From: a virus
IMG/VR virus record: IMGVR_UViG_3300027899_000012
Coordinates: 1 to 64,000 of that record
Direction: 5' to 3' (one strand)
DNA length: 64,000 nucleotides
Shown here piece after piece: positions 1 through 20,920 of this stretch. The position numbers were made by a program, and so were the translations under genes. Below the pieces are notes generated by a model. It was not told the origin of the DNA. It ran no database searches and worked only from the letters and a program-made list of their open reading frames with translations. The first letter of the stretch is position 1. The number at the start of each line of letters is the position of its first letter.

Positions 1-132
1 CCACTGCGGTACGGGGCCGCGTTACCAAACGAATCCGTGGGACAAGGAGAGAGACTGTCATGGCAAAGATCCTCAACATTCGCGAGCGCGTTCATCAACC
101 GTACAGAGACGCGCTCATCCGGACCGCGGGCT
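1..132 (+). repeat. Direct repeat copy A (leader plus 5' end of candidate capsid gene), truncated by window start
   Basis: 1-132 matches 899-1030 with one mismatch (110 C vs 1008 T); period 898 bp. Confidence 0.95.
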
Positions 133-830
133 TCGCGACCGGCCGGCTGACTTCGTCCAGCGACCTTTTCATCACGCAGGGGCGGGATGAAGGCTGGACC
201 AACCTCAAGACAGCGGCCGTTCTCGCGAACGACTCCAGCATGATCGTGCTCGCCGCACGCGTGCTGCAGTGGTTCCGGGCACCCGTCGTCCGCTCGTTCG
301 ACGGCGTCACTGGCGTCATCGATCGCAACGGCGATATCGGACCCCAGAACGTTGCCGACGGTTGGGTCTTCCCCAACGGCGCAGGCCAGCCTGCCATCGG
401 AAACGGCATCGGCGACTTCGAAGACGTGTACCGCCTTCACTGGCAGTGCGCAGAGGGCCTCTTCTGGACGATGGGAGCCGGAGAGAAGGACAGCCTGAAG
501 TCCATGCCCAGCATGTACTTCCCCTACGGTGGCGGTCTTTCCGGTGACATCGGTGGGTCGAGCGAACTCATCCATCTGCAGAACGGTCTGCCGACGCACA
601 CGGCCATCCTTCGGGTTGCTCGCGCCATCACCATCACCCCGCGCCAGCTCATCCGCGTCAACGTCAACGCGGTTGCGTACGACGACGGCGGAAACGGGAC
701 ACTCTTCGGATCGTCCACCACGCAGGGCCGCAACATGCTCAATCCGATCGACAACCTGAACGCGGCCGACGCGATCATGAAGGTCGTTTCGATGACGATC
801 GACGGCTTGCTCAGCCGCGACGTGCAGTAG
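60..830 (+). CDS. Candidate jelly-roll major capsid protein, paralog 1
   Basis: SD AAGGAG; 256 aa; HQPYRD...LF...G...TNL....L.ND pattern I associate with single jelly-roll capsid-like proteins; paralog of 958-1734. CDS certain, product tentative. Confidence 0.5.
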   Translation: MAKILNIRERVHQPYRDALIRTAGFATGRLTSSSDLFITQGRDEGWTNLKTAAVLANDSSMIVLAARVLQWFRAPVVRSFDGVTGVIDRNGDIGPQNVADGWVFPNGAGQPAIGNGIGDFEDVYRLHWQCAEGLFWTMGAGEKDSLKSMPSMYFPYGGGLSGDIGGSSELIHLQNGLPTHTAILRVARAITITPRQLIRVNVNAVAYDDGGNGTLFGSSTTQGRNMLNPIDNLNAADAIMKVVSMTIDGLLSRDVQ

Positions 831-898
831 GCGTATCGACGCTGAAAACAGGCAAGGCGAACGAAGGACACGTAGGGACCAGGAACACGACACATTTC

Positions 899-1030
899 CC
901 ACTGCGGTACGGGGCCGCGTTACCAAACGAATCCGTGGGACAAGGAGAGAGACTGTCATGGCAAAGATCCTCAACATTCGCGAGCGCGTTCATCAACCGT
1001 ACAGAGATGCGCTCATCCGGACCGCGGGCT
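899..1030 (+). repeat. Direct repeat copy B
   Basis: Near-identical to 1-132. Confidence 0.95.
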
Positions 1031-1734
1031 ACAGCACGGGTGGCCTCGGAGCCAGCAGCGACCTGTTCATTGCGCAAGGACGAAATGAAGGCTTCACGAA
1101 TTTGAAGACCTCCGCCGTCCTTCCGAACGACTCCAGCATGATCGTGCTCGCAGCGCGCGTCATGCAGTGGTTCCGTCGCGGCACGATCCGCACCGAGAGC
1201 CAGGGCGTGGTCGTCAACAATGGCGACGGGAACCTGTTCCCGAACCTCGCAGGCCAGCCTGCGGAAGGCAACGCTGGAGGCGACTTCCTCGACGTGTACC
1301 GCCTTCACTGGCAGTGCGCAGAGGGCCTCTTCTGGACGCTCGGCGCCGGAGAGAAAGACAGCCTGAAGTCCATGCCCAGCATGTACTTCCCCTACGGTGG
1401 CGGCCTGGACGCCATCCTCGGCATGGCGGCGCGATGGACGGTGCGAAGTGAACTGGATACGATTCGGCCTCTGATTCACTTCAACAACGGCGAAGCCACT
1501 CACACGGCCATCCTTCGGCTCGCGCGCGCCATCACCCTGACGCCCCGCCAGCTGATCAAGGCGTCCGTGACGGCCATCTCGTACGACGACGGCGGCAACG
1601 CCCCGCTGTTCGGATCGCGCACGGCAACGGGCCGCAACATGCTCGACCCGATCGCCAACCTCAACGCCGTGGACTCGATCGCCAAGGTGGTCTCGCTCAC
1701 GATTGACGGCCTTCTCAGCCGCGACGTTCAGTAG
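958..1734 (+). CDS. Candidate jelly-roll major capsid protein, paralog 2
   Basis: Same leader, N-terminus and C-terminus (TIDGLLSRDVQ) as 60-830, with divergent internal segments. Confidence 0.5.
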   Translation: MAKILNIRERVHQPYRDALIRTAGYSTGGLGASSDLFIAQGRNEGFTNLKTSAVLPNDSSMIVLAARVMQWFRRGTIRTESQGVVVNNGDGNLFPNLAGQPAEGNAGGDFLDVYRLHWQCAEGLFWTLGAGEKDSLKSMPSMYFPYGGGLDAILGMAARWTVRSELDTIRPLIHFNNGEATHTAILRLARAITLTPRQLIKASVTAISYDDGGNAPLFGSRTATGRNMLDPIANLNAVDSIAKVVSLTIDGLLSRDVQ

Positions 1735-1743
1735 TCGCGCCGC

Positions 1744-1810
1744 CCGAAGAACGCTTCGGACGATACCGCGTGTGTATCGCGCCCCCGGCGCCCTCGCGCT
1801 GCCGGGGGCG
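1744..1810 (+). promoter_or_regulatory. Three consecutive stem-loops between capsid-like genes and next gene
   Basis: CCGAAG/CTTCGG 1744-1759, CGATAC/GTATCG 1761-1779, CGCCCCCGGC/GCCGGGGGCG 1780-1810. Confidence 0.6.
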
Positions 1811-1828
1811 TCTCCCAGGAGGAGCGAT

Positions 1829-2845
1829 ATGGATCTCAATCAACTTCAGCAAGTTCTCGCTCGCATCGAGGCCAAGGCCGACGGTGCCAACAAAGCCGCA
1901 CGTCAGGTGTGGGACAACGTCCAGCAGGCTCGCGGCGACGTGGCAAGTGTCGCGCGCGCTCACCAGGAACAAGCAGCGCAGGTGCAGCATCTTCACGGCC
2001 TGATGCAGGGTCTGAAGATCGGAGGCGGCAAGACGGGTGGTAGCGGTGAACCCCACCCCGCGCAGGTCGGCCGACCCGACATGCTCGCCATCGAAGAGAT
2101 TCCCGGGCGCCGCATCCCCTGGGACATCACCGTGCAGATCGGAATCCCCGACTCGCAGGTGAGCCCCTTGCCCGGCAGCTACCCCCTGAGCATGGACGGG
2201 CCCTTCGTGGCTGTCGCCAGGTACGCAACGTTCGTGTCCTCGTACACGTTCCAGGTCACCGACGGCGCGAACATCAACCGCTTCACGGGCCGAACCTGGG
2301 GCCGGCAGCGGCCGATCAGCAGCGTCCTGGACCTGATGGACGCCATGACCGGTTGGGCAGACGGCGTGGGCATCGAGTCGAGTGAGGCCCCGTGCGAGGA
2401 AGCAGATCCTGGCCCGGTTCCCGCTGTGATCTCCAGGCCCACGAGCCGAAACCCGGGCCGATCGATGGTCTTCGACGGCTACGTCAAGCTCACGAACGGC
2501 ACCTACCCGCGCCAGAACCAGCAAGTCCCGACGTCTCTGTGGGCACCTGGCTTCAACCAGATGCTTCAGCTGCCCGTCCTGGACTATTGGGAGAAGGGCG
2601 ACACGATCGAGTTCGAGGTCGAACCCTCGCACTCGAACAACGCCCCGCAGGGAAACATCCAAGCGCTGCTGGGAAGCATGCCCTACCTGGACGGACAGTT
2701 CGACGGCCAGGAAGGCATCATGTACCCGGAGTGGCAGTGCACTCCCGACGTTGCCGACGTGATTCAGCGCCGGCCCGCGGGCATTCTCATCGTGGGCCTG
2801 CTCGGCTTCAAGATCCTGCAGCCGCCGGGCGTCCGTCTCCGGTAA
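1829..2845 (+). CDS. Putative virion structural protein (N-terminal coiled coil plus beta-rich domain)
   Basis: SD AGGAGG before ATG 1829; follows capsid-like genes. Confidence 0.55.
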   Translation: MDLNQLQQVLARIEAKADGANKAARQVWDNVQQARGDVASVARAHQEQAAQVQHLHGLMQGLKIGGGKTGGSGEPHPAQVGRPDMLAIEEIPGRRIPWDITVQIGIPDSQVSPLPGSYPLSMDGPFVAVARYATFVSSYTFQVTDGANINRFTGRTWGRQRPISSVLDLMDAMTGWADGVGIESSEAPCEEADPGPVPAVISRPTSRNPGRSMVFDGYVKLTNGTYPRQNQQVPTSLWAPGFNQMLQLPVLDYWEKGDTIEFEVEPSHSNNAPQGNIQALLGSMPYLDGQFDGQEGIMYPEWQCTPDVADVIQRRPAGILIVGLLGFKILQPPGVRLR

Positions 2846-2856
2846 GGAGGTGACCC

Positions 2857-3681
2857 TTGGCTAATCGAATGCCCTTCTCGCTGCACACTTCCCGACTCGA
2901 TCGGGAGGGGTGCCCTGTCGATCCGACCTCGCCCGTTCCCCCTCCCTGGGATGGCCCAGGGGCGTCAGGAGCGCCAGGAGCATCCCCTGCGCGGGGTCCG
3001 AGCCGCTTCAGCGAAGTCGCTCAGATGATCGCGAAGTGGGGACGCAACCCTGAGTTCCTGCCGTACGAGGAAATCTTCCGGAGCGAGCCCAACGAGGCTT
3101 GGTTCGATCCGGCTCGTGACCCCGATCACCCCACGCAGTTCGAGATCGCGAGCGTCCGGCCCGAACGAGGCCAGACGATACTTCTGTTTGACTACGAAGT
3201 CATCCCGTACTCGTTTTCGGGCATCACGGCGCTCGACTACCAGCCCCTGGACGACGGCTTGCTTTCGGGCGTGTTCGGCTATTCCTTCCGGATCAACGGA
3301 CAGGAACCCGGGCAGCTCAAGTACCGACTAGACCCCGTGTCATCGACGATTCGGCAGCAATCGCAGCGCTTCAACCAGAAGCTGCAGAAGAACCTGACCG
3401 AGCTTTCCGCCGACGACTACGCGATCTCGCAGTCGCAGAACTACGCTGCGGCCGCAGGCTACGGCACGGGACTGCACCCGCAGACCCGGTCTCACTACGG
3501 CGCGAGAGGCGCTCCGTTCACGGAGTTCATCCACGACGAGCAAGTGCTCGCGGTCGTCGGGGTTGTGTACCGCCCTGTCGAAGTGCCGATCGCGTTCATT
3601 CAAGTCCGCCTTTCCGGCTTCAAGTGCGGCTCGACGATGGCCAAGCAACTGGAAGCTGATCTTCGCAACAATTTGCGCTAG
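2857..3681 (+). CDS. Putative virion structural protein
   Basis: SD AAGGAGG then TTG; 274 aa, beta-strand-like pattern. Confidence 0.55.
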   Translation: MANRMPFSLHTSRLDREGCPVDPTSPVPPPWDGPGASGAPGASPARGPSRFSEVAQMIAKWGRNPEFLPYEEIFRSEPNEAWFDPARDPDHPTQFEIASVRPERGQTILLFDYEVIPYSFSGITALDYQPLDDGLLSGVFGYSFRINGQEPGQLKYRLDPVSSTIRQQSQRFNQKLQKNLTELSADDYAISQSQNYAAAAGYGTGLHPQTRSHYGARGAPFTEFIHDEQVLAVVGVVYRPVEVPIAFIQVRLSGFKCGSTMAKQLEADLRNNLR

Positions 3682-3774
3682 GTTGTCCTACGAGCGCTTC
3701 CGTGTACGATCGGGGAGCGGCGCAAAGAAAAAGCGTCCGCTCACCCTGGCCTTCGTATCCGGGAGCGCTTGTTC

Positions 3775-4707
3775 ATGTTTGATGTAGCCGTCTGCGACAT
3801 TTTCTCGAACTTCGACTCGAACTTCGCGAACCTCGACGGGTACAACAAGTTCACCCCCGACAACGACTGGATCATGCGGGTCCTCGTGGACCAGTGGGAA
3901 ACGGTCGTTCCCCCGTCGAGCAAGATCCTCAGCGTCGCGGAAGCTGTCAGCACGACGCTCGCCGTGTGCAATCAGCTGAGCACCTACCAGGTCAAGGGCG
4001 TGTGCCTGCAGCAGGTGCCGCAGGGCCAGGAAACGGCTTCGTACAACATCAGCAAGCTGGCCTGGTCGTTTGGCAACCCGTGCAGCAACAAGATCGCGGC
4101 CGGCGACGGTACGTGGATGATCGACGTGGTGTTTCGGCCTCGCATCAGCACAACCAACTGGACGGGAGTGGACGGCAACCTGTGGGGCGAATACTTGCAG
4201 AAAGCCCTCGCGGGATCGCGAGGATCGCCGTCTGTCAAACCCGTAGCTCTTTTCCCGCTCATGGACGCTTCGGTCGGCGACTTCCAGAACACGTACAACG
4301 ACGCGAAGGCCTTCTGGTCGAACGTCCAGGCGTACTGGGAAGTCAATCAGACCAACTCTGCCACTTCTACCACCGGCTACGGATACGACCAGCGCCTGCA
4401 GATCAACAAAGATGGCCCCGCATGGGCAAGCTTGCCGCTGGTCGGGCAGGGCGGCGCCGGACTGGCGCTCGGCAGCGCGCTGGCTCCGCAGCTTCTGCAG
4501 CCGCTTCAGCACTCCGGCACCATCATCAACGGCATGGGGCCGGGAACTCCGGCCAACCTGAGCACAGCCAACCCGGACGATCCTTCTTCCTGGCCGATCT
4601 CGCTGCCCGCCGGATGGGGCTCGCTGGCCCCTTCCGAAAAAATCGTGGGCGTCGCGGCGGGTCTGCTGATCGGCTACGGCATCGCGAAGTGGTACCTACG
4701 CTGGTAG
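3775..4707 (+). CDS. Hypothetical protein with C-terminal membrane anchor
   Basis: Ends IVGVAAGLLIGYGIAKWYLRW. Confidence 0.7.
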   Translation: MFDVAVCDIFSNFDSNFANLDGYNKFTPDNDWIMRVLVDQWETVVPPSSKILSVAEAVSTTLAVCNQLSTYQVKGVCLQQVPQGQETASYNISKLAWSFGNPCSNKIAAGDGTWMIDVVFRPRISTTNWTGVDGNLWGEYLQKALAGSRGSPSVKPVALFPLMDASVGDFQNTYNDAKAFWSNVQAYWEVNQTNSATSTTGYGYDQRLQINKDGPAWASLPLVGQGGAGLALGSALAPQLLQPLQHSGTIINGMGPGTPANLSTANPDDPSSWPISLPAGWGSLAPSEKIVGVAAGLLIGYGIAKWYLRW

Positions 4708-4720
4708 AGCCCGCGCGCCG

Positions 4721-4749
4721 TTGTGCGTTTGGGGGCTCGCCCGTAGCAT
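4721..4749 (+). promoter_or_regulatory. Sigma70-like promoter
   Basis: TTGTGC-17nt-TAGCAT, then AGGAG and ATG 4769. Confidence 0.5.
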
Positions 4750-4768
4750 AGGGGCAGGAGATAGCCCC

Positions 4769-6091
4769 ATGGTTTGCTCGTCCTGCCTGATCGCGCTCGC
4801 TGGCTTCGGTGAAGACACGACGCCTGCTTCCCCCGCGCAGACTTTGCCCACCGCGGTGGGTGCTGAAGTGCTCGGAAGCCTCATGTACGTCGTCGGCGGT
4901 CCCGTCGTCGGCGCGATCGCGCTTTCGATCGTCGGAGCCGTCGCGTGGAAGTCCCACCGTGTGGCCGGCGGAGCCCTCGGTCTGGTCGGCGGAGGCATCC
5001 TGGGAGGCCTGGTAGGCTCCTACTTCGCCGCTCGCAAGATGGAAGCCGTCTTGCCCCAGCTGCAAGACGCGCTCGACGCAGCAGCGGAAAACTCCATCCC
5101 GGTGACGCAGGAAGGGATGTTCGCTCCGCCCCCCGGCGGCTGGACGATCGGGCCCCTCGAATTGCCCGCCGGCACGGTTGCGGCTCCTGGCTTGATTCCG
5201 GGGAACGTGTCGGTGCGGCCCGGCCAGCTTCTCGGCCTGCTCAGCATGGCCAAGCCACCGCCGGCCAACTCCGCTGGCCCCCTGAAGATGAACATGGGCA
5301 TCCCCGCCAAGCAGCCGCCACCTCCGGCCGCCACGGGCTGGAAGGTGCCCGTCATCAAGGCGTCGAGCCCGGTCGTGAAGGTGCCTGTGCTTCGTACGGC
5401 TTCGTCGTACGCGGCTTCGGCCGTCAAGGTGCCAGTGCTCCGAACGGCTTCTTCGTACAACGCCCCAGCGGCGTCGCAACCGGCGGTCGTGAGCACGAAA
5501 AAGGCATCTTCGTACAACGCACCGACCTCTTCGGTCGTGAGCACGCGCACGGCTTCTTCGTACAACGCGCCGCCCGCCGCGGTTGCGTGCGAGCAGCAGT
5601 GCTCGGACAAGTACTTGCCCAACAACGACCTGATGAACTGGGGAGGCTGCGTTCTCGGGTGCAATCCTTCGGCACCGGCGCCTGCCGTCACGTGCAAGCA
5701 GCAGTGTTCGCAGACGTACGGCCAGCAGATGCTCACCGGCGACAGCAGCGGCTGGTACAAGTGCTGGGTCGGCTGTGAAGCCGCAACTTCCCCGCAAGCT
5801 ACCGCGGCCGTGAGTACGCGCACGGCGTCGTCGTACAACGCTCCCAGGACAGGAACGGCGTCCACCAGCCCCCTGGCTCGCATCGGAGCGGCTATCCAGA
5901 CTCTGCTGGCTCCCAAGACGGCCATCCCGTCGAGTTCGGCAGTGAACCTGATCATGCCCGGGACCCAGGCCCCCACTTCGGGTCAGCCCGTGGTCAAGCC
6001 GGTCCTGCAGATCAGTTCAACAGCCCGTCAAGTTGTCGTGCCCACTGCAGCGGTCAACACGCCGTCGTACGGTACGACGAAATTGCTCTGA
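4769..6091 (+). CDS. Membrane protein with ASSYNAP repeats and duplicated Cys module
   Basis: SD AGGAG; two N-terminal hydrophobic helices; about 5 (T/K)ASSY(N/A)A repeats; two CxQQC...WxxCxxGC units. Confidence 0.75.
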   Translation: MVCSSCLIALAGFGEDTTPASPAQTLPTAVGAEVLGSLMYVVGGPVVGAIALSIVGAVAWKSHRVAGGALGLVGGGILGGLVGSYFAARKMEAVLPQLQDALDAAAENSIPVTQEGMFAPPPGGWTIGPLELPAGTVAAPGLIPGNVSVRPGQLLGLLSMAKPPPANSAGPLKMNMGIPAKQPPPPAATGWKVPVIKASSPVVKVPVLRTASSYAASAVKVPVLRTASSYNAPAASQPAVVSTKKASSYNAPTSSVVSTRTASSYNAPPAAVACEQQCSDKYLPNNDLMNWGGCVLGCNPSAPAPAVTCKQQCSQTYGQQMLTGDSSGWYKCWVGCEAATSPQATAAVSTRTASSYNAPRTGTASTSPLARIGAAIQTLLAPKTAIPSSSAVNLIMPGTQAPTSGQPVVKPVLQISSTARQVVVPTAAVNTPSYGTTKLL

Positions 6092-6095
6092 TCCC

Positions 6096-6329
6096 ATGCT
6101 GCCGCTGATGCTCCTTTCGCAGAACAAGCACGTCACGGACAAAGTCCTGGCGATCGCTGGCTATCTTGGCGGACTGGGCGAAATGGACGTGCGTGAGCTT
6201 TCAACCACCCGCATCCCCGTCTGGGCCGTCGCAGCAGCCGGAGGGGTTGTGGGACTGGTCGGCGGCTTCTGGTTGGTGCGCAAGCTGCCGGCGTCATGGG
6301 TGCTAGGCAAGGAGCATCGCACGCGATAA
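6096..6329 (+). CDS. Small membrane protein
   Basis: LGGLG motif then TM segment WAVAAAGGVVGLVGGFWLV. Confidence 0.7.
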   Translation: MLPLMLLSQNKHVTDKVLAIAGYLGGLGEMDVRELSTTRIPVWAVAAAGGVVGLVGGFWLVRKLPASWVLGKEHRTR

Positions 6330-6342
6330 GCTCGCGCTCACG

Positions 6343-6990
6343 ATGCCATCCATCCTCGACTTTTTTCGGGCGTCCATCAGCGGAGGCGGCGCGCAGGTAA
6401 ATCCCCTGCACATCGCCCAGGCCGTAGGGCAGTTCGCTCACACCCTGGAATCGTACGGAAATGACCGCGCCAAGGCTCTGCTCACGCACGTCCTGGCCCC
6501 GTGGGCGATCGGCATCGCGCAGAAGGCTCCCACCAAGTGGCTGCTGCCCGCTTCCGTTCCGCCCGTCTGCGCTCACGAAGAGCCCGCTGGGATCTGCGCC
6601 CAGTACGCCATGGGGGGGTGCCACCTGTGCGGCCGACCGGTGTGCCTCGGTCACGCCCTGGTCAGCGCCGACGCTACGCTGGTCTGCTGGGCCTGCATGA
6701 AACTGGCAGCTCAACACGCCACCCCCTGGCAACCGAGCCCTCAGCAGGCCCATGGCGTCGCAGGACAGGCCAACGATTGGGCCTACGACCTTCTGGGGAT
6801 CGAGAGAGACGCGACGGCGCTCGAAGCCAAGAAGGCGTACAAGCGAAAGATCGCCCAGTACCATCCCGACCGGCACGACAACGCGTCCGCCGACGAGAAG
6901 CGAGCCAATGGCGATCTAGTGCGAAGTTTGAAGAAGGCCTATGATCTGGTTGTTGCCGACATAGAAAAGCGAAAAGGCCGCCCAAAATGA
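6343..6990 (+). CDS. Zinc-binding plus DnaJ J-domain protein
   Basis: CxxC...CxxH...CxxC region; C-terminal AYDLLGI...KKAYKRKIAQYHPD...AYD J-domain with HPD. Confidence 0.9.
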   Translation: MPSILDFFRASISGGGAQVNPLHIAQAVGQFAHTLESYGNDRAKALLTHVLAPWAIGIAQKAPTKWLLPASVPPVCAHEEPAGICAQYAMGGCHLCGRPVCLGHALVSADATLVCWACMKLAAQHATPWQPSPQQAHGVAGQANDWAYDLLGIERDATALEAKKAYKRKIAQYHPDRHDNASADEKRANGDLVRSLKKAYDLVVADIEKRKGRPK

Positions 6991-7403
6991 GTTACGAACG
7001 CGCCAACGTGCTGGACAAGACCCCCGGGCTCGCCTTCGAGGCCTTCATTCCCGGAACAAGGAACCCGATGATCCCGCAAGCCATGTACCGACCCCGCGCC
7101 GCCGGTCCCCGCAGCCTCGTCGGGCTCGAAGGTCTCGGCGCGCACCAGTACTACGCGCCCCTGCGCCAGATGCGCCTTCCCCTGCAGGGGCTGGGCGCTG
7201 ACCCCATCACGGACCTTCTCGGCGGCACGCTCGACCAGGCCCTGCAGATGGTGATCGTGCGCAGCGCGCCTTTCATCCAGGCCCAGGTCAAGCCGATGAT
7301 TCAGCCCATTCAGATCCTGATGGGAATCACGGCTTTCGCGTCCGTCGTCGGCGCCGGCTTCGCTTTCCTCGCCTGGAAAAAGAGCAACGCTCTCGGATAT
7401 TAG
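6987..7403 (+). CDS. Small membrane protein
   Basis: ATGA overlap; LEGLG and LQGLG motifs; C-terminal TM. Confidence 0.75.
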   Translation: MSYERANVLDKTPGLAFEAFIPGTRNPMIPQAMYRPRAAGPRSLVGLEGLGAHQYYAPLRQMRLPLQGLGADPITDLLGGTLDQALQMVIVRSAPFIQAQVKPMIQPIQILMGITAFASVVGAGFAFLAWKKSNALGY

Positions 7404-7415
7404 CACGCGCGATGC

Positions 7416-7445
7416 TTGACGTAAGCACGTGCGCGCGCGTAGTCT
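7416..7445 (+). promoter_or_regulatory. Sigma70-like promoter, leaderless transcript
   Basis: TTGACG-18nt-TAGTCT-7nt-ATG(7453). Confidence 0.6.
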
Positions 7446-7452
7446 CGCCGAC

Positions 7453-8241: not shown

Positions 8242-8244
8242 CCG

Positions 8245-10691: not shown

Positions 10692-10996
10692 TCAATCTCG
10701 CCGCTGCTGTTGACAATGACGTGTTCCTGCAATTCAAGCACGGAATCTACCTGATTGCGTCCCAGGGCGGGCGGCTTCTGCCGATCGTGACGGGAGAGCA
10801 GAACAACCCGGGCCCTCCGATGATCGTCGATCACCTCGAAGGTCGCCTTCGCGAGGACAAGGGATCGTTCGTTCTGTCGTACCTCAGCCCGATCGACCGG
10901 CAGTCGCAGATCGACTACGTGATCGATCCCGAGAACGTTGCCGGATGCTGGATGACTCGAAAAATCCAGGTAGTGTCGGCCATCACGGCTCCGTGA
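10688..10996 (+). CDS. Hypothetical protein
   Basis: ATGA coupling, SD GAAAGGG. Confidence 0.7.
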   Translation: MINLAAAVDNDVFLQFKHGIYLIASQGGRLLPIVTGEQNNPGPPMIVDHLEGRLREDKGSFVLSYLSPIDRQSQIDYVIDPENVAGCWMTRKIQVVSAITAP

Positions 10997-11492: not shown

Positions 11493-11545
11493 GGAGGAGA
11501 GGGTAGCACGAAATTTGATGCTTTCTCACTCCCCTCGCTTGGCTC

Positions 11546-12331: not shown

Positions 12332-14694
12332 AGCAATGCCTGTACGGCTGGCTCAAACAAGGAAGCAACCACCAAGAACCCCGCGTCGGTGAAATGCACC
12401 TTGTCCGCTGTCCGGTAGGTCAAGTCCGAAGCGTTGGCCATTCTCGCGTCGGCTTGGATGTCTACCCACCCATCGGAGTAGGTGGCATGGTTGGCCTGGA
12501 TGGCAGCGCGATATGCTGCGTACTCTGCCTGGATCGCGGGAGTGATCCCGGCGTAGTCGATTGCGGGCAACGTCCCAACGACGACCTTCCACCCGATTGC
12601 ACGCCTTGCCGCGCAGTAGGCGGCAAGCTCCGCGTGAGTGTCCGCTCCAGACTCTCCAAGCGCAATGTCGTTGGTGCCGTGCCACATCACGAGGACACAA
12701 GTACGGGTTGCGTCGTATGCCGCATCCACTTCATAGGCCAACGCAATGGCGTCTCCAATGAACGACGATCCGACCGCTTGATTGAGCCTCGCGTGCGGCG
12801 TAGTGGCGAGCATGCGAGCAGGGTACGTGTATTCTGGCCGCGTAGCCGCGTTGCCCTGTGTCAACGAATCCCCGACGTGGCAGACGATGGGAGCCGTGTG
12901 CGGAGTGAACGTGCGCTGAGTCAATCCGAATTTTGCCACGGCCCACGCGGTGATCTGCTGGATCTGCGCGTCCGTGAGCGCACTGGGAATCCACTGCGCG
13001 AATTTGACCGAAGCATCGTTGACCGCGCCGCTGATGCCCTGGAGCCCGATTGCGCCTGAACCCAGGGTGATGGCTCCCGCCGCGTTGGCGATCTCTTCTC
13101 CATCCACCAGTGTCCGCACGCGGCTGGCCTCGTAGGTACGGACGTGGACGTGGTACTCGTTCATCCAAGCGATGGCAGTTTCTGCCGCGTGAGGGAACAG
13201 TCCCACGTCGGAGCCGTACTGGTAGTCGCGTTGTCCGCTGGTGCCGATGAACTCGATCCCGGCCGCTACGCCCTGAGTGAGCGTCGTGTGAATCACGGTC
13301 TGATTCGCGGCAGTTTCTGGGTACGCTACGACGAGCACCTGTGAGTGCGAGGCGTTGCCAGTCACCCCTCCTGATGCTGCTACCAGTGCGGTGTTCGACG
13401 CTGCGGCCATTGTGAACACGCCGTTTTTCACCGCAGGGCGTTGAGGTGCCGATGCTGCTGTGAGCAAGACTGCTGGGTCGCGAAGGTTCTGCGCCGATTG
13501 CGCTGCGAGCCCGCCGATCACGGCGACCGTATGCTGCGCGTAGGGAGCAACAATGATCCCTCCAAGTTTGGCAGGAATATCGAAGCACCTGTCGATTAGC
13601 CACGCGGTTTCGTTGGCGACTTCCGCGTCGGTGATCGCGCGACGGGACACGACGATCCCTCCCGCACTCATGGCGGTGTATGCCGCGATGACGCCGAGCC
13701 GTCGCCAGCCGCCGACAGTGAACTGCCCAGGCGTTGCGACGCCGACGTTGAGCGCCGCTCCGTTGATGACCTTGATCCCGTCGATCCAAACGTCCACGGT
13801 TGTGCCGTTGAATCGGACGGTCATGATCTGCGCGACGGTCGATTGCGTGCCGCCGCTCGCTGTAGCTGACGCGCCCGTGTCGTCGTAGCGATAGACTTTG
13901 TACGCACCCGCATTGTACGTCGGAATCATCGCGCCTTGATTGACCGCGTCTCCGATTGACCAGAGGCATTGCAGCAATGCGGGAGCGTTGATCGTACCTG
14001 CAATGCTGATCGTAAATGGCGTGTCGTCGCCAGCGAACCAAGCGCCGATTGCGTCGGCAGTCATGGTGTGAGTTGAGCCGTTGAATAGCAGACCAGGATT
14101 GCCAGCGAAACCGAACTCAGAGTATCGAGGCGCGAGCGCGTGCGCTTGCACGAGCGGCGTTGTGCCGACGACAGGCGTCCAGACCGTTGCGTTGCGGTTT
14201 GTCGGAGTAGTGAGCGCCCATTCGGTCGATCCGCCCACGGCTGTGTAGAGGATCGGCAGGGCCGTGCCGTTGCACGCGAACTCGATGTCGAAATCCTGCC
14301 ACACCACCGATGACGTGCCCTGCCACTGCACGCCGAGAGCCGCATCCATCACAATCGGGATGCCTGTCGCGTCGCCTCTGACCTTGCCGACGTAGCGGAT
14401 CGTCGTGCCAGATACGGACGTTCCAGCCTGATACGCAAAGCTACTTGCTCCTGCGATCTTGAGTGCGTTGCCCCCACCGGGAGCGGTCGCCACCTTCGAC
14501 AACGCAGCGCCGCCTCCTGCTGTCCACGCGCCCACACCCGCTGCTGCGCATGACCAGTCTGTGCCGCCGAATGCTGGGACAGCGATCCCGTACGACGCCA
14601 GCCAGATCGCGTCAGCGTTTGGGGTCAGTATTGCCTGCAAGACGCCAGGGACTTCGTTGCGCGTTGGGTCGAGACAACCTTGAAATGCTCGCAT
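12328..14694 (-). CDS. Multi-domain LamG-like protein with C-terminal SGNH hydrolase
   Basis: Two beta-sandwich domains; GDSLT, GTND and DKVH SGNH blocks. Confidence 0.85.
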   Translation of the reverse strand: MRAFQGCLDPTRNEVPGVLQAILTPNADAIWLASYGIAVPAFGGTDWSCAAAGVGAWTAGGGAALSKVATAPGGGNALKIAGASSFAYQAGTSVSGTTIRYVGKVRGDATGIPIVMDAALGVQWQGTSSVVWQDFDIEFACNGTALPILYTAVGGSTEWALTTPTNRNATVWTPVVGTTPLVQAHALAPRYSEFGFAGNPGLLFNGSTHTMTADAIGAWFAGDDTPFTISIAGTINAPALLQCLWSIGDAVNQGAMIPTYNAGAYKVYRYDDTGASATASGGTQSTVAQIMTVRFNGTTVDVWIDGIKVINGAALNVGVATPGQFTVGGWRRLGVIAAYTAMSAGGIVVSRRAITDAEVANETAWLIDRCFDIPAKLGGIIVAPYAQHTVAVIGGLAAQSAQNLRDPAVLLTAASAPQRPAVKNGVFTMAAASNTALVAASGGVTGNASHSQVLVVAYPETAANQTVIHTTLTQGVAAGIEFIGTSGQRDYQYGSDVGLFPHAAETAIAWMNEYHVHVRTYEASRVRTLVDGEEIANAAGAITLGSGAIGLQGISGAVNDASVKFAQWIPSALTDAQIQQITAWAVAKFGLTQRTFTPHTAPIVCHVGDSLTQGNAATRPEYTYPARMLATTPHARLNQAVGSSFIGDAIALAYEVDAAYDATRTCVLVMWHGTNDIALGESGADTHAELAAYCAARRAIGWKVVVGTLPAIDYAGITPAIQAEYAAYRAAIQANHATYSDGWVDIQADARMANASDLTYRTADKVHFTDAGFLVVASLFEPAVQALL

Positions 14695-14698
14695 GGTC

Positions 14699-16681
14699 TT
14701 ACACCGTGGCGTCGAATGGATCGAACATGGGGAAGCTGTCGGAGCGCAGAACCGATCCCAGGCTGATGTACTGACTGGTGACGTGACTGGCTTCCGTTGC
14801 TTGAATCACCTGTGTCCAGGTCGTCCCCCAGGCTCCTCCGCACATCCAGATCGTCATACGACAATCGGAAGGACGCCGGTTGATGATCACCTCGTATTGC
14901 GTGTCCGCGACGATGCTGCCAACAGGACCGCTTCCAAGTGACGTGGCAACAGCCCCCGTCAGGCGAAACAGCCAAGGCTGACCGGCACTCAGGTAGATCA
15001 TGTAGCCGTTCTGTCCGGTGGCAGCGTAGGTTCCAGGCTGCGATGCGATGAACAGCACGTACTGCTCGTTCACGCTCACGGTACCTGGGCGCATGAAGAA
15101 ATGCCAAGTGCCGAACGCTTGCGAGCTTGGCCTCGACGCGGCCCCGTGGCCCGCTCCGATGTGCTTCATGCTGCGCCGACCCGTCGCGCTCTCCACGCAG
15201 GCCCAGGTGTCGCCGTACAGGGTCCATGGACCGATCTGCCCACCCGCCGCAACGCTCGCGGTCAGCGTCACGGGCACGTCCTCCAGGGTCTCGCGCAGGA
15301 TCAATCGCTGCGCCCACTGCAGATACTCTGTACGAACCTGAGCCGCTGTGAGAGCACGATTGAACATGCGTTCCTGTTTCGCCGCGATCTGAACCGCGAC
15401 GCCAGGGTTGCCATAGATCAGGCTTCCACCAGCGAGGTTCGGGGTAGTTGCAGGGACGGGTAGTCCAGCACCAGCAAACGTGAGCGCAACCTCTTCCCCG
15501 TCAACATACAGCTTCAAACGTCCCGCGTTTCCGACGCCTGCTCCATCGAACACGATAGCGACGTGCTGCTGCGTTCCCGTGCGCCACTGAGTTGAAGTAG
15601 TCGTAGCGGTGAACGTCACGCCACCCACAACCCATGTGATCGTGAGTGGTTGAACGGCGGCAGATGCAGCAACGTTGGACAGAACGATGAGATCCGCCGG
15701 ACCCTTCCCGAAGATGTAGGACAGCGCCGGAATGTTCCCCGGTCCCGTGTCAATCACCGTCTCGTAGGTGAACGCCGCCACGCTGTTGAACGCCGTTACG
15801 TCTCCCTGGTTCAAAGAGCATGCAGACGAAAACAGCATCCCCTCGTCGTTCTGCCCCGGCACCGGAATGCCAACGATGGTCCCCGGATAGCTGCCGACGA
15901 GGTCACGCACGGTCGTTGCGTTGATCCGCTTGAAGTCTGTGTCGAGCACGATGCCAGCCGCAGCGTACTCGCTGGCGCGCTTCGCGGGATACTGGTAGAC
16001 GAAGTTCTTGCGGGCGAGGTTCTTGACCCAGCCTTCCTGCAGAAACTCGTCCCAGAGTTGGGCGTGTTGGGCTCCGGTCAGCACGAGGTCGCAGACGCCT
16101 GCCAGCAGAACCGTTCCGCCGAATCCCTGCCCACCACCACCGGCACCGATACGAAAGTCGCTGAGTTGATTGACGACGGTCAACGTGGTGATCCCGCACG
16201 GGACTCCGTCCACGTAGAGAGTCGTGCCGTTGACAACGCCTGACTGGTACGACATGGCGAACAGATGCAGCAGCCCGGTTGGACCCTCGACGAACGTGGA
16301 AGCTCGCCACAAGCCAGAGTTCCAGTCGTACACACCGAATGCTCTCGGCTCTGCTGCCGGGTTGAATCCGAAGGTGTAGGCGTTCTGCTTGTTCAGGATG
16401 GCTTGGTACGCGGCTGTGGCCGACTCTGTCCTGCACCCCACAGCGAAGATCGTCCCGGTGTTCAGTTGAAGGGCAACCGGATTCCCAGGCGACACGTAAT
16501 TCGCTCCCGCGTTGGGTGTCCACAGCCCGTCCCCTCGATCCGTGTCCTTCCACAGCGGAGCCCCCGTGATCGCTAGAGCACCGAGAGCGCTGCTGCCCTG
16601 GTCGATGAGCGTGCCTCGCTTGAGGGTCGCGTACAGGGGGAGGTGCGATGTGGCTTTGAGGTAATCGATCAGCTTGCCCAT
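14699..16681 (-). CDS. Tandem LamG-like domain protein
   Basis: HLFAMSY..TLYVDG and HVAIVFDG...KLYVDG...RMFNRALTAAQV. Confidence 0.85.
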   Translation of the reverse strand: MGKLIDYLKATSHLPLYATLKRGTLIDQGSSALGALAITGAPLWKDTDRGDGLWTPNAGANYVSPGNPVALQLNTGTIFAVGCRTESATAAYQAILNKQNAYTFGFNPAAEPRAFGVYDWNSGLWRASTFVEGPTGLLHLFAMSYQSGVVNGTTLYVDGVPCGITTLTVVNQLSDFRIGAGGGGQGFGGTVLLAGVCDLVLTGAQHAQLWDEFLQEGWVKNLARKNFVYQYPAKRASEYAAAGIVLDTDFKRINATTVRDLVGSYPGTIVGIPVPGQNDEGMLFSSACSLNQGDVTAFNSVAAFTYETVIDTGPGNIPALSYIFGKGPADLIVLSNVAASAAVQPLTITWVVGGVTFTATTTSTQWRTGTQQHVAIVFDGAGVGNAGRLKLYVDGEEVALTFAGAGLPVPATTPNLAGGSLIYGNPGVAVQIAAKQERMFNRALTAAQVRTEYLQWAQRLILRETLEDVPVTLTASVAAGGQIGPWTLYGDTWACVESATGRRSMKHIGAGHGAASRPSSQAFGTWHFFMRPGTVSVNEQYVLFIASQPGTYAATGQNGYMIYLSAGQPWLFRLTGAVATSLGSGPVGSIVADTQYEVIINRRPSDCRMTIWMCGGAWGTTWTQVIQATEASHVTSQYISLGSVLRSDSFPMFDPFDATV

Positions 16682-16695
16682 GGTTCGATGCTACC

Positions 16696-17790
16696 TCACG
16701 TCGAGAGTTCCGACAGCAATCGGTTGTGAAACACCGATACCTGCTGCGGCGTCATCGGCAGTGGCCACACCGATGCGTGCAGCATCTTGGCTGTCGTGCG
16801 CCCCAGAAACACGCCGTCGCCGCCGACGTAGGTCGTGGTGCCCCCACCATCGAGCGCCCCGGTTGCAGCCGCGCTTCGCACCAGCAACCCATCCACGTAG
16901 AGCGACGCGATGCCCGTTGCGCCGACGTAGGTGCCCATAACCGTGTGCAGACCACCATCCGCCAGATCGATCCCCGCTGCGGAGATATACCTACCGAATC
17001 CAGTTCCCCCAACGTAGAACGTCGGGATGCGCCGACCCCCACCGTCAAGCTCTGCAGATAGCGACCATCCGGCGGTGCCCGTGCAGACCTTGCCCATCAG
17101 GCCGGGGTAGTTCACGGTCTTCTGCAACCCGACGAACTGCACGACTGCCGTGATGTCCGTGAGCGCCGGAAGGTCAGTGAGGCAGCGAAGGTTCACACCA
17201 GCCGCACCGTTGAGCGCAACGCCTCGACGCAGGCTGATGGAAGGGGTGAGCATCGTGGGAAACGTGGCCGGGGTGAGCCCGTCGCCGCACTGCACGTTGG
17301 TCGAAACGCTTCCGATGTTTCTGGTGAGGCACAGGGACGGGATGGCTTGCAGATCATCCGCATCCCAGGACTGTCCAGCCCCAAGCACGCCCTGATACAG
17401 ACCTATCTCCGCGTCGGTCGCGACGAACAGCCCGGTGTCGCCCTGTTGCCATGCGTTGTTGACCAGACCTGTCCACCGGACTGCGCCGCCACCGTAGATT
17501 CTCGGCGCGAACGTGCCGTCCGTTTTCTGCCACACCACGATCCTGTACGTTCCGCCGATGGTCAGACCGTTCTGGTATGCGTCGGTCGCTCCCCCAGTGG
17601 ATACTGCGTGCAGAACCTGCGTGCCGCTGCCACCTGGGCGACTGCCAGCGATCTTGGACAACGTCACGGCGGCTGCTGTGTAGGCAGCAGCGGTGGGAGC
17701 TTCCATGTTGCCGTCCACGACGGGATCTCTGGTCGCATCTTCCTCCAGGTAAATCGACCGCAAGGGCAAGTAGATCAGCGGGCGGCTCAT
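16696..17790 (-). CDS. Carbohydrate-binding-like plus LamG domain protein
   Basis: DGNME...DDL N-terminal domain; HTVMGTY..SLYVDG. Confidence 0.8.
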   Translation of the reverse strand: MSRPLIYLPLRSIYLEEDATRDPVVDGNMEAPTAAAYTAAAVTLSKIAGSRPGGSGTQVLHAVSTGGATDAYQNGLTIGGTYRIVVWQKTDGTFAPRIYGGGAVRWTGLVNNAWQQGDTGLFVATDAEIGLYQGVLGAGQSWDADDLQAIPSLCLTRNIGSVSTNVQCGDGLTPATFPTMLTPSISLRRGVALNGAAGVNLRCLTDLPALTDITAVVQFVGLQKTVNYPGLMGKVCTGTAGWSLSAELDGGGRRIPTFYVGGTGFGRYISAAGIDLADGGLHTVMGTYVGATGIASLYVDGLLVRSAAATGALDGGGTTTYVGGDGVFLGRTTAKMLHASVWPLPMTPQQVSVFHNRLLSELST

Positions 17791-18455
17791 TGGGGCGTGA
17801 TCTCCTGGGCCATGTCCTGCTGGTAATCGTCCAAGGCTTCCTCTGCGCTGAATGCGAAGTTGAACACCCTGAGAGTCTTGATCCGAAGTCCGGCTCGGGC
17901 CGCTCGCACAAAGTTCTCAGACAGAAAATTGAGCGGTGCGTTGACGGCTTCCAACTTCGCCGGAAGCGTTCCCGTCGAGTGTGACACTCCCACGGGCTGA
18001 CCGTTCAGGTACAGACCAAGCGTCGGGCCTGCGCCGTTGAATACCCACGCGATGCGGTAGGCGGTGTTCGCCAGGATGACTGCCGTCGTTCGGTCCGTGC
18101 TTGTGTTTCCAGCGGCCACGTTCGTGATGAACGAAAACAGGTAGGAAGACTCGATGTCGAACTCCCAAGCGCGAGATCCCGCTGCTCCGAACCGGCCGAA
18201 CAAGATGCTTGCGTTCACGATGTTGGCAGGCGTCACCAGATCGATCACCCAGGTGGCTTGCGTTGCCCCGTTCAGCACTCCGTGACCAGAAGCGAAGCTC
18301 ACGTCGTCGGTGTTGTCCGCGCTCACCAACAACCCCCTGTCGATGACCGGCGTGCCCCTGACTATTCCGCCCAGATCCGTGACTGCCAGCGTGTTGTAGA
18401 AGTCACAACGCCAGATCATCCCGTCGCCCGCAACGTGTCCTTCCTGAAGGCTCAT
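17787..18455 (-). CDS. LamG-like domain protein
   Basis: YRIAWVFNG..GLYLNG...LRVFNFAFSAEE. Confidence 0.8.
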   Translation of the reverse strand: MSLQEGHVAGDGMIWRCDFYNTLAVTDLGGIVRGTPVIDRGLLVSADNTDDVSFASGHGVLNGATQATWVIDLVTPANIVNASILFGRFGAAGSRAWEFDIESSYLFSFITNVAAGNTSTDRTTAVILANTAYRIAWVFNGAGPTLGLYLNGQPVGVSHSTGTLPAKLEAVNAPLNFLSENFVRAARAGLRIKTLRVFNFAFSAEEALDDYQQDMAQEITPQ

Positions 18456-19870
18456 TCGTACACCGCCGTGACGTATGCGCTCGCGCCCGTGATGATGAAG
18501 TACAAGCCCGTGTAGGTATCTCCCCCGACCTCGATGGAGACGGGAGAAGCATTCGCTGCAAGGTTCGTGTTGACGATCATGTTTCCGGCAGCAGGCGCAG
18601 CCACCGTGTCGTGGACGACGATTGTCGCGGCGTTGTTGCCCGTGTCAATGATGATCCTGTGCAGACGCCCTGGCCCAATCTTGATGCAAAGCCCTGCCGT
18701 GGCCTGCATCAGCTTGATCATAGGAGAGGTGGACTCGCGGCCCAGGCGCGTGATCGAGCCCGACCACGTCTCCATCGAAGCCGACGTGCCCAGTCCGAGC
18801 GCCAGGAAGGTCGCGGGCAAGTGCTGCGTGCCCGACAGGGGGGCCGTCGTTCCGTTGAAAGTGTGGATCAGGTTTCCATCGATGATGAAGCGCGCCTTGG
18901 AGATCGTCCAGACCACCTCGTAGGCATGACTGTTCTGGTCCACCACGTACTGGTTCACGTCACCGTTGAACGCGCCGCTCGCGACGGTTCTGCCGACTCG
19001 CGATCCGCCGACGTAGCAACTTAGGTTCAGCACGCCTGCCGCGTCCACGTCGAACGTGTAGCCGTCCACCGGGGCCAAGGGAGAGCCCGTCGTGGTCATC
19101 GGACCCCAGATACGTGTTGCGTTCGCGACGACGACCGTGGGCAAACGCACACGCTGGTAGGACCGATGCGCGTTGAGGTTGGTGTACCTCGCTCGCCGCA
19201 CGGTCTGGATCTGCGAGTGTGCGGGGTTCGTGGTTCCGGTCACAAGCGTCACGACGCCAGCGGTCACAATCGAAGCCGTGGCTGGTGCGCCGCCACCGCC
19301 AAGCAGAGCTACCTGCCAGAAGTTTCCGTCGATGCCTTCCGCGACCGTGCCGAACATCGTGCCCACGAGCCGGTAGGGCTGGTTCACATCCTGAAATCCG
19401 TGCGGGCTCATGCGAGCTTCGTCACCGAAGACACTGTACTGCCCGTAGGAAGCGACTCGCAGGTTGTTGTGCGCGTCCGTGGCCCTCGGAAGCGGCTCTG
19501 TGATCGGACACAGGAAGCCCGCGATCTTCACACCGGTCGAGATCGCTGCACCCAGGTTCACCACGCGGATGCGCCAGTACGCTGAGACTGCCTTGACCGT
19601 CGTGCCGATGGGTCGTCCGGGGACGAAGTCGAGCAGATCCGAGATCGTGGCCGTCACGGCCAAGGGGTTGTCATCCTGCTCGATGTACACGCTTCCAGGC
19701 TGGCCCATGGTGACCGTGGCCTGCAGAGCCGCGACCCCCAGCGTGCTCTTCCATGCCCCGGTGAAGCTGCCGCCGATGGCAATGTTCGCCGTGCTGCTGT
19801 TGCCAGCATCGACTTGCACGTCCTGAACGACAGCCACCGACCCTGCGCCGACGATTCCACCAAGGTGCAT
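18452..19870 (-). CDS. Beta-rich putative spike/receptor-binding protein
   Basis: SD GGAGG; HAYEVVW...FIIDG lectin-like domain; C-terminal GPGRLHRIII...GLYFII domain. Confidence 0.7.
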   Translation of the reverse strand: MHLGGIVGAGSVAVVQDVQVDAGNSSTANIAIGGSFTGAWKSTLGVAALQATVTMGQPGSVYIEQDDNPLAVTATISDLLDFVPGRPIGTTVKAVSAYWRIRVVNLGAAISTGVKIAGFLCPITEPLPRATDAHNNLRVASYGQYSVFGDEARMSPHGFQDVNQPYRLVGTMFGTVAEGIDGNFWQVALLGGGGAPATASIVTAGVVTLVTGTTNPAHSQIQTVRRARYTNLNAHRSYQRVRLPTVVVANATRIWGPMTTTGSPLAPVDGYTFDVDAAGVLNLSCYVGGSRVGRTVASGAFNGDVNQYVVDQNSHAYEVVWTISKARFIIDGNLIHTFNGTTAPLSGTQHLPATFLALGLGTSASMETWSGSITRLGRESTSPMIKLMQATAGLCIKIGPGRLHRIIIDTGNNAATIVVHDTVAAPAAGNMIVNTNLAANASPVSIEVGGDTYTGLYFIITGASAYVTAVYE

Positions 19871-19879
19871 GGCGACCTC

Positions 19880-20920
19880 CTACGAGCCCCATCCGTACGT
19901 CACGTAGGCAGTCGTGAGAATTGCGTTATCTCCTCCATCGACAGAACATGTGGCTTGAAATTGCACAAACGGATGAGAATTACTCACGTCCCATGTGACT
20001 GCGATCTTCTGATCCAGATCGATGTTGAGTTTCATCCGCTCTGGTTCAACGCCTATCGTCCATGTACCAGCAGCACCGGCAACGGACGGGTTGTAGATCG
20101 GCAGGCTGTATTCGTCTGCCCCAGCAGAAGTGTGCTTGCCGAGACATCGAATCATGATCCCGGTCATGGCGTTGATGTCGAGATCGATCCACAGCGTGAT
20201 GCGAGTGTACCCTTGCAGAGGGATCTCCGGTCCAACGTCAACCCAGTTCGGCGTGGTGGTTGTGATCGTGATCGGACCACCAAGAGAAAACGGGGTTTGT
20301 ACGTTTCGCGACCAGAGAGGAGCCGTCTCGAACACGCGCACCGCGTTGCTCGCCGCGTCGTATCCCTTGACGTTGACGTACAGGTAGCCGTCCGCGTCGA
20401 TGTTGAACTCGCAGTAGTCTCCGTCCGATCCCGCAGAGTTGATCGGAACGTCTCGACGCACGGCAAGGATGTTCTCGCCCCAGTCGCCCGAGGTGTGCGC
20501 CGTATCTTCCTGGTACAGGCCCCAGGCGGATGGAAGACCGGGAGTCACGGCGATGCCCAGGTCCGTCAGGCCGAACAAACCCCGGGCTTCGATTGTGCCT
20601 GAAGCGGTCGGGTTGGTCCCGCCCGTGAAGCCGATCGTCACGTACACGTCCGGCGACTCGGAAATCACCCTTTTCGGATCGGGCATCACGTTGTTGGCGG
20701 TCTGAATCTCGTGCGTCCCGATCAGTTCGACCGTGCCGGTCTGAATGCGCCAGAGAAACAGAATCAGAGAAGTCGGGTTGCCGGTTGTGACCAGGTTCTG
20801 AACCCGGAACTCCACGATCGACATGTTCGCGGGAAGGGCAACGCCCGAAGCTGCTGCAGGCGGCCCGGGGGCGTCGGCAACGGCAGCAACCAGGGTTCGG
20901 ATCAGGGTCCAGGCGCTCAT
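19880..20920 (-). CDS. Beta-rich putative structural protein, first gene of cassette
   Basis: SD GGAG; EDTAHTSGD.G...LAVRRD...DGDY motif of phage fibre-type proteins. Confidence 0.7.
   Translation of the reverse strand: MSAWTLIRTLVAAVADAPGPPAAASGVALPANMSIVEFRVQNLVTTGNPTSLILFLWRIQTGTVELIGTHEIQTANNVMPDPKRVISESPDVYVTIGFTGGTNPTASGTIEARGLFGLTDLGIAVTPGLPSAWGLYQEDTAHTSGDWGENILAVRRDVPINSAGSDGDYCEFNIDADGYLYVNVKGYDAASNAVRVFETAPLWSRNVQTPFSLGGPITITTTTPNWVDVGPEIPLQGYTRITLWIDLDINAMTGIMIRCLGKHTSAGADEYSLPIYNPSVAGAAGTWTIGVEPERMKLNIDLDQKIAVTWDVSNSHPFVQFQATCSVDGGDNAILTTAYVTYGWGS

Follow-up and report, generated by a model that had tools for sequence, protein, structure and literature searches.

A possible lineage of large tailless bacterial viruses with two predicted single jelly-roll capsid proteins

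The described viruses closest to the element reported here are the Helvetiavirae, of the SH1 and P23-77 kind, with genomes of 16-31 kb, and SPV1, which has a genome of about 20 kb and a nucleoprotein core and for which enclosure of the genome during assembly has been proposed. To our knowledge, every tailless jelly-roll virus described so far from a bacterium or an archaeon is small, and large genomes among prokaryotic viruses have so far been those of tailed phages. A published account describes an FtsK-HerA packaging ATPase in helvetiaviruses, gives SPV1 as lacking a genome packaging ATPase, and places the prokaryotic double-jelly-roll viruses below 20 kbp (PMC8812541). Here we analyze a stretch of 64,000 nucleotides (bases 1-64000, hereafter the window) of the IMG/VR record IMGVR_UViG_3300027899_000012, a linear virus contig of 90,242 bases that opens with genes for two candidate major capsid proteins (MCPs), MCP1 and MCP2. 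An original prediction from the letters of the window had read 60-20920 as the structural-looking genes of a possible large tailless, membrane-containing virus. We lean towards the view that this contig and its relatives form a new lineage of bacterial viruses that are large and tailless, probably contain a membrane and would build their shell from MCP1 and MCP2.

Predicted folds and conserved neighborhood of MCP1 and MCP2

The features that carry this reading lie at the very start of the contig.

1-109, plus strand: MCP1a leader and the opening 50 bases of its coding region; same sequence as 899-1007
60-830, plus strand: MCP1a, 256 residues; single jelly-roll/beta-sandwich model; candidate major capsid protein 1
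958-1734, plus strand: MCP1b, 258 residues; paralog of MCP1a; candidate capsid protein
1829-2845, plus strand: MCP2, 338 residues; N-terminal 60-residue helix and single jelly roll in the model; candidate major capsid protein 2
2857-3681, plus strand: conserved beta-rich protein, 274 residues; always directly after MCP2; no Pfam or PHROG family; candidate minor capsid or vertex protein

MCP1a and MCP1b share 69% identity in protein and 74% in DNA, with the differences mainly in two loop regions, which bears out the pair of paralogous capsid candidates of about 257 residues in the original prediction. The MCP1a model, built from a 44-sequence alignment, is a beta sandwich with a predicted local distance difference test (pLDDT) score of 77.8. 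The MCP2 model, built from 53 sequences, has a helix at residues 3-61 and a jelly roll at 94-330 (pLDDT 72.2). The solved structures closest to MCP2 are the capsid proteins of SPV1, SH1, P23-77 and HHIV-2, with Foldseek E values of 2.5e-3 for SH1 and 5.4e-3 for HHIV-2. Lower-ranked structures, at 6-7.6, are those of PBCV-1, EhV-201, STIV, PRD1 P3, Faustovirus and vaccinia D13, and the non-viral monooxygenase PHM ranks among these lower matches at 7.3. For MCP1, Foldseek returns no match at E <= 0.001 against PDB and BFVD; the weak top rows are capsid proteins of SPV1, PRD1, SH1, HHIV-2 and P23-77, and a further structure comparison gives TasA at 6.2, SPV1 at 5.9, XepA at 5.0 and PNGase F at 4.7-4.8. 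Neither model resembles the HK97 fold. Jelly-roll folds had been suggested for the four proteins at 60-830, 958-1734, 1829-2845 and 2857-3681; the two of these four that were modeled (60-830 and 1829-2845) are indeed single jelly rolls.

At the level of sequence, MCP1a, MCP1b and MCP2 match no Pfam or PHROG family, and when MCP1, MCP2 and a widened MCP2 family were run as profiles, the PDB sequences yielded only immunoglobulin or coiled-coil noise. The Pfam families P2_N and P2_C, which we take to be the two domains of the PM2 coat protein and which were tried after an Atlas lead (score 0.77), give no match, and hhalign finds no relation between the 2857-3681 protein and MCP2. MCP1 is the best conserved gene of the module, with 71% identity to the relative L003 against 54% for MCP2, 49% for the 2857-3681 protein and 36-48% for the rest.

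Homologs of both proteins are numerous in metagenomes. Clustering at 90% identity gives 187 MCP1 and 233 MCP2 clusters, all metagenomic and on contigs of up to 142 kb, and an MCP2 profile search of 1.84 billion representatives gives 147 clusters at 50% identity, 52 of them under an E value of 1e-30. Distant MCP2 members, of 213-336 residues, keep the layout of a coiled coil followed by a beta domain. A scan of IMG/VR with a single MCP1 protein as query returned nothing, and an alignment-based query returned 24 MCP1 loci. A further scan that used the distant MCP2 group as query yielded 20 loci, of which 13 are new and distant; the contigs reach 297,749 bases. The lineage is thus widespread in public metagenome data, with no match by tblastn of MCP1 or MCP2 among 50,697 deposited phage records. 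The same search of 72,556 plasmid records finds no match, and in the literature, judged mainly from titles and the openings of abstracts, we found no description of such viruses.

These relatives share a fixed gene order. The codon-usage gene caller (98 genes on the contig, 71 in the window) is crude, with opposite-strand miscalls in places, and gene order in relatives was therefore re-checked with hidden Markov models (HMMs) on all open frames. Directly upstream of MCP1 the relatives encode an Arg-rich protein of about 800 residues (L034:6382-8889 in G003, one of three complete relatives, G002, G003 and G004), which has no counterpart in this contig. Among the first 24 IMG/VR loci this gene lies directly upstream of MCP1 in 21, MCP2 is present in all 24 and a homolog of the 2857-3681 protein in 22. 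The order Arg-rich protein, MCP1, MCP2, 2857-like protein recurs in 43 related loci; it is complete in every one of the 13 distant loci and likewise in all 9 loci that are close or binned into metagenome-assembled genomes (MAGs). The longest relative, L065 (297,749 bases, CheckV completeness 90%, no end repeats), is a distant member that keeps this order.

MCP1 copy number varies across the group, with one copy in the more distant relatives and two in the close relatives L060 and L063. The duplication is therefore a feature of a clade, and the conserved pair is MCP1 with MCP2. The original prediction had seen in the two paralogs the capsid pair of P23-77 and SH1; the paralogs are real, but the pair that is conserved joins MCP1 to an MCP2 unrelated to it in sequence.

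Five records with direct terminal repeats, G002, G003 and G004 among them, measure 135,429, 136,226, 159,872, 161,502 and 179,401 bases and give an idea of genome size. The earlier expectation that the genome far exceeds those of known viruses of the P23-77/SH1 kind is thus supported by these records of 135-179 kb. CheckV estimates the 90,242-base contig to be 91% complete; its GC content is 60-66% throughout, and no tRNA genes were found on it. Bases 1-109 repeat 899-1007, the shared leader and start of the two MCP1 paralogs. The contig thus starts inside a 109-base repeat, at which the assembly broke directly upstream of MCP1a, and it therefore lacks the genes found upstream of MCP1 in all relatives examined, counterparts of which occur nowhere in the 90-kb contig. 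Of the structural module, then, the window has just the downstream portion. The interval 60-20920 divides into a conserved virion module on the plus strand (60-10996) and a variable cassette on the minus strand (11546-20920), so that its structural-looking genes are present as first described but do not make up the whole module.

Searches for packaging and tailed-phage genes, and rival readings

Since the window contains only the downstream part of the module, the original observation of no terminase, portal, HK97 or tail motif in 64 kb called for a test on relatives with complete genomes. Pfam searches of 50 proteins of the contig find no terminase, portal, HK97 or tail family. PHROG searches of 10 and then 70 contig proteins find no structural family (the 70 match 12 families, of which the named ones are SSB and ParB-like), and the 25855 gene product has no PHROG family. 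Six-frame searches find TerL_ATPase, Phage_capsid and Phage_portal in none of five records, three of them complete, and Terminase_6N in none of ten, terminase Pfam families beyond Terminase_6N and TerL_ATPase not having been searched. In G003, 57 proteins of at least 170 residues (collagen-repeat proteins left out) match 43 PHROG families, and the best 25 of these 43, which include transposases, RNase H, endolysin/transglycosylase, methyltransferase and thymidylate synthase, contain no structural family. None of the conserved proteins of at least 400 residues in the three complete genomes is portal- or terminase-like; of the three large ones, the first is of low complexity and rich in Arg, the second is a membrane protein rich in Cys, and the third is a coiled-coil protein. 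At the level of HMMs the original observation therefore holds, for all four kinds of motif in the contig and for terminase, portal and HK97 in the three complete relatives.

The original prediction had also pointed to an FtsK/A32-type packaging ATPase, and here the outcome is negative: by HMMs and motifs, none is found in the contig or in the three complete relatives. FtsK_SpoIIIE and Pox_A32 of Pfam have no match in the five records, and among the 39 families common to G002, G003 and G004 a conserved GK[ST] motif occurs only in DnaB and in a 176-residue exonuclease-like protein. At this sensitivity, the lineage appears to lack both known kinds of packaging motor.

Several candidates were considered and set aside. 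The Walker-A protein at G003 75411-76466 is a helicase loader of the DnaC/DnaI type. A 184-residue protein of the contig outside the window (82369-82923), with a Walker-A-like GCGVIGKT, belongs to no family and is not conserved in relatives. The upstream proteins of about 816 and about 640 residues, considered as portal or terminase, are an Arg-rich low-complexity protein with Gly-rich repeats and a Cys-rich membrane protein; both lack a Walker A motif.

Several observations weigh against a tailless virus. The nearest Atlas clusters are automatically labeled as Uroviricota, the taxon of the tailed phages. The PHROG result in G003 covers the best 25 of the 43 matched families, and, the models covering two proteins, an HK97, portal or terminase fold beyond the reach of Pfam and PHROGs could lie in other conserved proteins, such as those at G003 95847-96899, 99709-100926 and 54855-55691. 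hhalign shows no sequence relation between MCP1 and MCP2, and the viral nature of the records comes from the IMG/VR classification and from gene content. A rival reading is a tailed phage of the HK97 lineage whose terminase, portal and capsid genes have diverged beyond recognition by Pfam and PHROGs, in which the jelly rolls would act as decoration, cement or fiber proteins and the LamG/collagen cassette would encode tail fibers. We consider this unlikely: no search brought up a terminase, portal, HK97, sheath, tube or baseplate family, no conserved protein of at least 400 residues in the three complete genomes has the look of a portal or terminase, conserved Walker A motifs are confined to replication genes, and the standing of MCP1 as the best conserved gene of the module would be unusual for a decoration protein.

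The terminal repeats, which are short (123 bases in G003), would also fit a circular replicon, and a large plasmid-like, non-viral element could use jelly-roll, membrane, glycosyltransferase and lectin genes to make a structure that is secreted or sits on the cell surface. Many sugar-binding proteins of cells have jelly rolls, and the top match of MCP1 is the biofilm fiber TasA; the ParB-like, recombinase, TnpB and methylase genes, and the failure to find a packaging enzyme, fit such an element too. We nevertheless regard it as quite improbable, as MCP1 and MCP2 are unmatched in the plasmid records, no conjugation ATPase is found (there being no conserved Walker A beyond replication genes), and IMG/VR classes all of the records as viral. 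The RecT/YqaJ, SSB and lytic transglycosylase genes are phage-like, and the tight, strongly conserved block, in which a basic protein and two jelly rolls stand together with tail-anchored membrane proteins, has the pattern known from membrane-containing virions. The reading as a large tailless virus is the one that we carry forward.

Other genes of the module, the cassette and the flanks

The rest of the plus-strand module runs from the 2857-3681 gene to 10996.

3769-4707, plus strand: protein with a hydrophobic C-terminal tail, 312 residues; only in close relatives
4721-6091, plus strand: membrane protein, 456 residues; two predicted segments (hydropathy scan); no Pfam or PHROG family
6033-6329, plus strand: small membrane protein; one predicted segment (hydropathy scan); start uncertain
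6343-6990, plus strand: J-domain (DnaJ) protein; Pfam DnaJ E 2.1e-10
6987-7403, plus strand: C-terminally anchored membrane protein, 138 residues; one predicted segment; has relatives; no Pfam family
7429-8241, plus strand: conserved protein with a Cys-rich C-terminal half, 270 residues; no Pfam or PHROG family
8245-9594, plus strand: glycosyltransferase-like core protein; weak Pfam Glycos_transf_1 match, E 1.2e-3, under the cut-off
9591-10691, plus strand: GT4 glycosyltransferase, core gene; Glyco_trans_1_4 E 1.3e-13; conserved in G002-G004
10688-10996, plus strand: small protein, last gene of the plus-strand block

The interval 3769-7403 encodes four proteins that have either membrane segments by prediction or a tail of hydrophobic residues. 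The abundance of membrane proteins noted at the outset is confirmed for the three flagged by the hydropathy scan (4721-6091, 6033-6329 and 6987-7403); the tail of the 3769-4707 protein, which has no Pfam or PHROG family, was noted by eye and falls below the threshold of that scan. The 4721-6091 protein combines a Pro/Ser/Ala-rich repeat region with two Cys-motif repeats, and 6033-6329 has a 48%-identical stretch in the relative L064. The J-domain protein is present in 19 of the 24 loci and in G002-G004. As for the two glycosyltransferases first proposed, 9591-10691 is well supported (GT4, E 1e-13), and 8245-9594 has only a weak Pfam match, yet is conserved with the glycosyltransferase of the three complete relatives. 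We further note that 9591-10691 also matches the Pfam family GT4-conflict (family 4 glycosyltransferase in conflict systems) at E 1.9e-12. The core genes common to the contig and its relatives are those for MCP1, MCP2, the 2857-3681 protein, the J-domain protein, the 7429-8241 protein, both glycosyltransferases, an esterase (61185-61994) and a transglycosylase (58469-59356).

The minus-strand cassette follows, its first gene lying at the highest coordinates.

11546-12331, minus strand: LamG-like protein, last cassette gene; Laminin_G_3 E 4.4e-4, under the cut-off
12328-14694, minus strand: GDSL/SGNH esterase-domain protein, 788 residues; domain C-terminal, Lipase_GDSL_2 E 1.3e-13; candidate receptor-modifying spike or fiber
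14699-16681, minus strand: protein with two LamG stretches, 660 residues; Laminin_G_3 E 2.2e-16
16696-17790, minus strand: LamG protein, 364 residues; E 6.5e-8
17787-18455, minus strand: LamG protein, 222 residues; E 2.1e-7
18452-19870, minus strand: GH16/ConA-like protein (weak), 472 residues; E 2.3e-4, under the cut-off
19880-20920, minus strand: first cassette gene, 346 residues; no Pfam or PHROG family

The LamG-type proteins of the original prediction are recovered, with Laminin_G_3 in four of these seven genes, three of them over the cut-off (14699, 16696 and 17787). The cassette is not conserved: in L003, the closest IMG/VR relative, the homolog of g10983 is followed directly by the recombinase gene, and G003 has its fiber cassette elsewhere in the genome (L029:5594-14858), with five collagen-repeat proteins and a GDSL esterase protein. 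A set of this kind, which varies between genomes and combines esterases with lectin-like and collagen-like proteins, resembles host-recognition fibers or spikes, which could sit on a tail or on capsid vertices.

Beside the module, 21432-25841 (minus strand) encodes a protein of 1469 residues in which a tyrosine-recombinase domain is recognized (Phage_integrase E 6.6e-13, PHROG integrase). Relatives keep it next to the module, as a protein of 1249 residues at 23% identity in G003 and by its C-terminus in L003. The core esterase at 61185-61994 (plus strand) is of the SGNH type, starts with a membrane segment and is shared by G002, G003 and G004, whereas the SLT lytic transglycosylase at 58469-59356 (minus strand) is conserved in G003 and G004; their conservation suggests that they are probably entry or lysis enzymes. 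An AAA ATPase lies at 42316-43965 (minus strand; Pfam AAA E 9.4e-11), and as the AAA protein of G003 (2656-4341) has no BLAST pairing to it, the two genomes carry different AAA proteins. Beyond the window, 65122-70179 of the contig holds a phage-type recombination module of a YqaJ exonuclease, a ParB-like protein, RecT and an N6/N4 DNA methylase.

The block upstream of MCP1 can be read in the relatives. Its protein of about 800 residues has a conserved N-terminal domain, several hundred Arg-rich low-complexity residues, a membrane segment and Gly-rich GEYF repeats, and is a candidate DNA-condensing core protein. An Atlas search with the version of about 835 residues from G003 returns only viral clusters (0.84-0.88), and the genes upstream of MCP1 in G003 match no Pfam or PHROG family. 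The block also encodes several membrane proteins with tail anchors, and repeats that look peptidoglycan-binding occur in two of these. A conserved 194-residue protein (L031:11773-12357; G003 91773-92357) carries an invariant DCD...HVF...DPV (Cys...His...Asp) pattern and, by eye, reads like a transglutaminase-type cysteine protease.

The original prediction had named Myxococcota as the possible host, which the present data do not support. Eight MAG-binned relatives carry the labels Myxococcales, Saccharibacteria, Methanomicrobiales, Pseudomonadales, Pseudomonadota, Pirellulales (twice) and Gemmatimonadota, so that one of eight is Myxococcales; such mixed labels are binning noise rather than host signal. 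The TnpB gene at 59886-61076 (plus strand; OrfB_IS605 and Cas12f1-like TNB) has its closest homologs, at 74-81%, on contigs with no taxon name. Among the homologs listed (at least 120), four carry an organism name; these come from three cellular taxa, Ardenticatenaceae, Chloroflexi and Ktedonobacterales, at 61-63% identity. These named cellular relatives all belong to Chloroflexota, which gives a weak hint of that phylum.

A model of the particle and its relation to known systems

We infer the following model of the particle from the two modeled folds, the conserved gene order, the size of the genomes and the failure to match any known packaging or HK97 family. MCP1 and MCP2 would build an icosahedral shell, by analogy with the capsid pair of SH1 and P23-77 or the capsid proteins of SPV1, and the N-terminal helix of MCP2, together with the small tail-anchored membrane proteins, would tie this shell to a lipid layer. 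The 2857-3681 protein may act at the vertices or as a minor capsid protein, the J-domain protein may recruit host Hsp70 in assembly, and the two glycosyltransferases may decorate virion proteins. The LamG, ConA-like and SGNH-esterase proteins of 11546-20920 could be exchangeable fibers or spikes that bind and deacetylate host surface polysaccharide. Given that no packaging NTPase of either known kind is found, the DNA may, as a speculation, be condensed by the Arg-rich protein of about 800 residues and enclosed during assembly, as proposed for SPV1. A broader claim, that these viruses form a high-rank lineage with genomes of 60-300 kb, a membrane-lined icosahedral shell of two unrelated single jelly rolls akin to those of SPV1 and the Helvetiavirae, no terminase or FtsK motor and DNA condensed by the Arg-rich protein, is one that we put forward only tentatively and with more doubt than belief. 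Under that claim, the lineage would parallel among prokaryotes the jump to large genomes made by eukaryotic jelly-roll viruses.

If the reading as large tailless viruses is correct, capsid type would not limit genome size. The lineage would also extend the capsid family of SPV1 and the Helvetiavirae to mainstream lake and soil bacteria, and would pose the question of how 135-300 kb of DNA is enclosed without a known packaging motor.

Among described groups, the jumbo tailed phages (Caudoviricetes) share with this element the genome size, the GC-rich bacterial-type genes, the RecT/YqaJ module and the collagen and lectin fiber proteins. They differ in that no HK97, portal, terminase or tail family is found here at Pfam and PHROG sensitivity, and the modeled capsid candidates are jelly rolls. 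PRD1 and PM2 (Bamfordvirae) have double jelly rolls, whereas those modeled here are single; P2_N and P2_C do not match, and no A32/FtsK ATPase is found.

SPV1 (Portogloboviridae) resembles this lineage in that no packaging ATPase is found here. Its host is archaeal and its genome small and circular, whereas the complete relatives here measure 135-179 kb and bacterial-type genes are present (SLT, RecT and TnpB, with DnaB and a DnaC-like loader in relatives); its capsid proteins show no sequence similarity to MCP1 or MCP2. The probable host type and the genome size thus set the lineage apart from Portogloboviridae.

The Helvetiavirae (the archaeal SH1, HHIV-2 and HCIV-1, and P23-77 of Thermus) are matched by the adjacent MCP1 and MCP2, both modeled as single jelly rolls with a putative capsid role, and the small and tail-anchored membrane proteins are consistent with an internal membrane such as theirs. 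Their FtsK-HerA ATPase is not found here by HMMs or motifs, so that a defining feature of the P23-77/SH1 group is missing and the lineage does not belong to the Helvetiavirae, whose genomes are moreover several times smaller. The 60-residue N-terminal helix of MCP2, the glycosyltransferases, the J-domain protein and the large fiber cassette are all additions relative to that group. SPV1 and the Helvetiavirae are nonetheless the nearest known systems.

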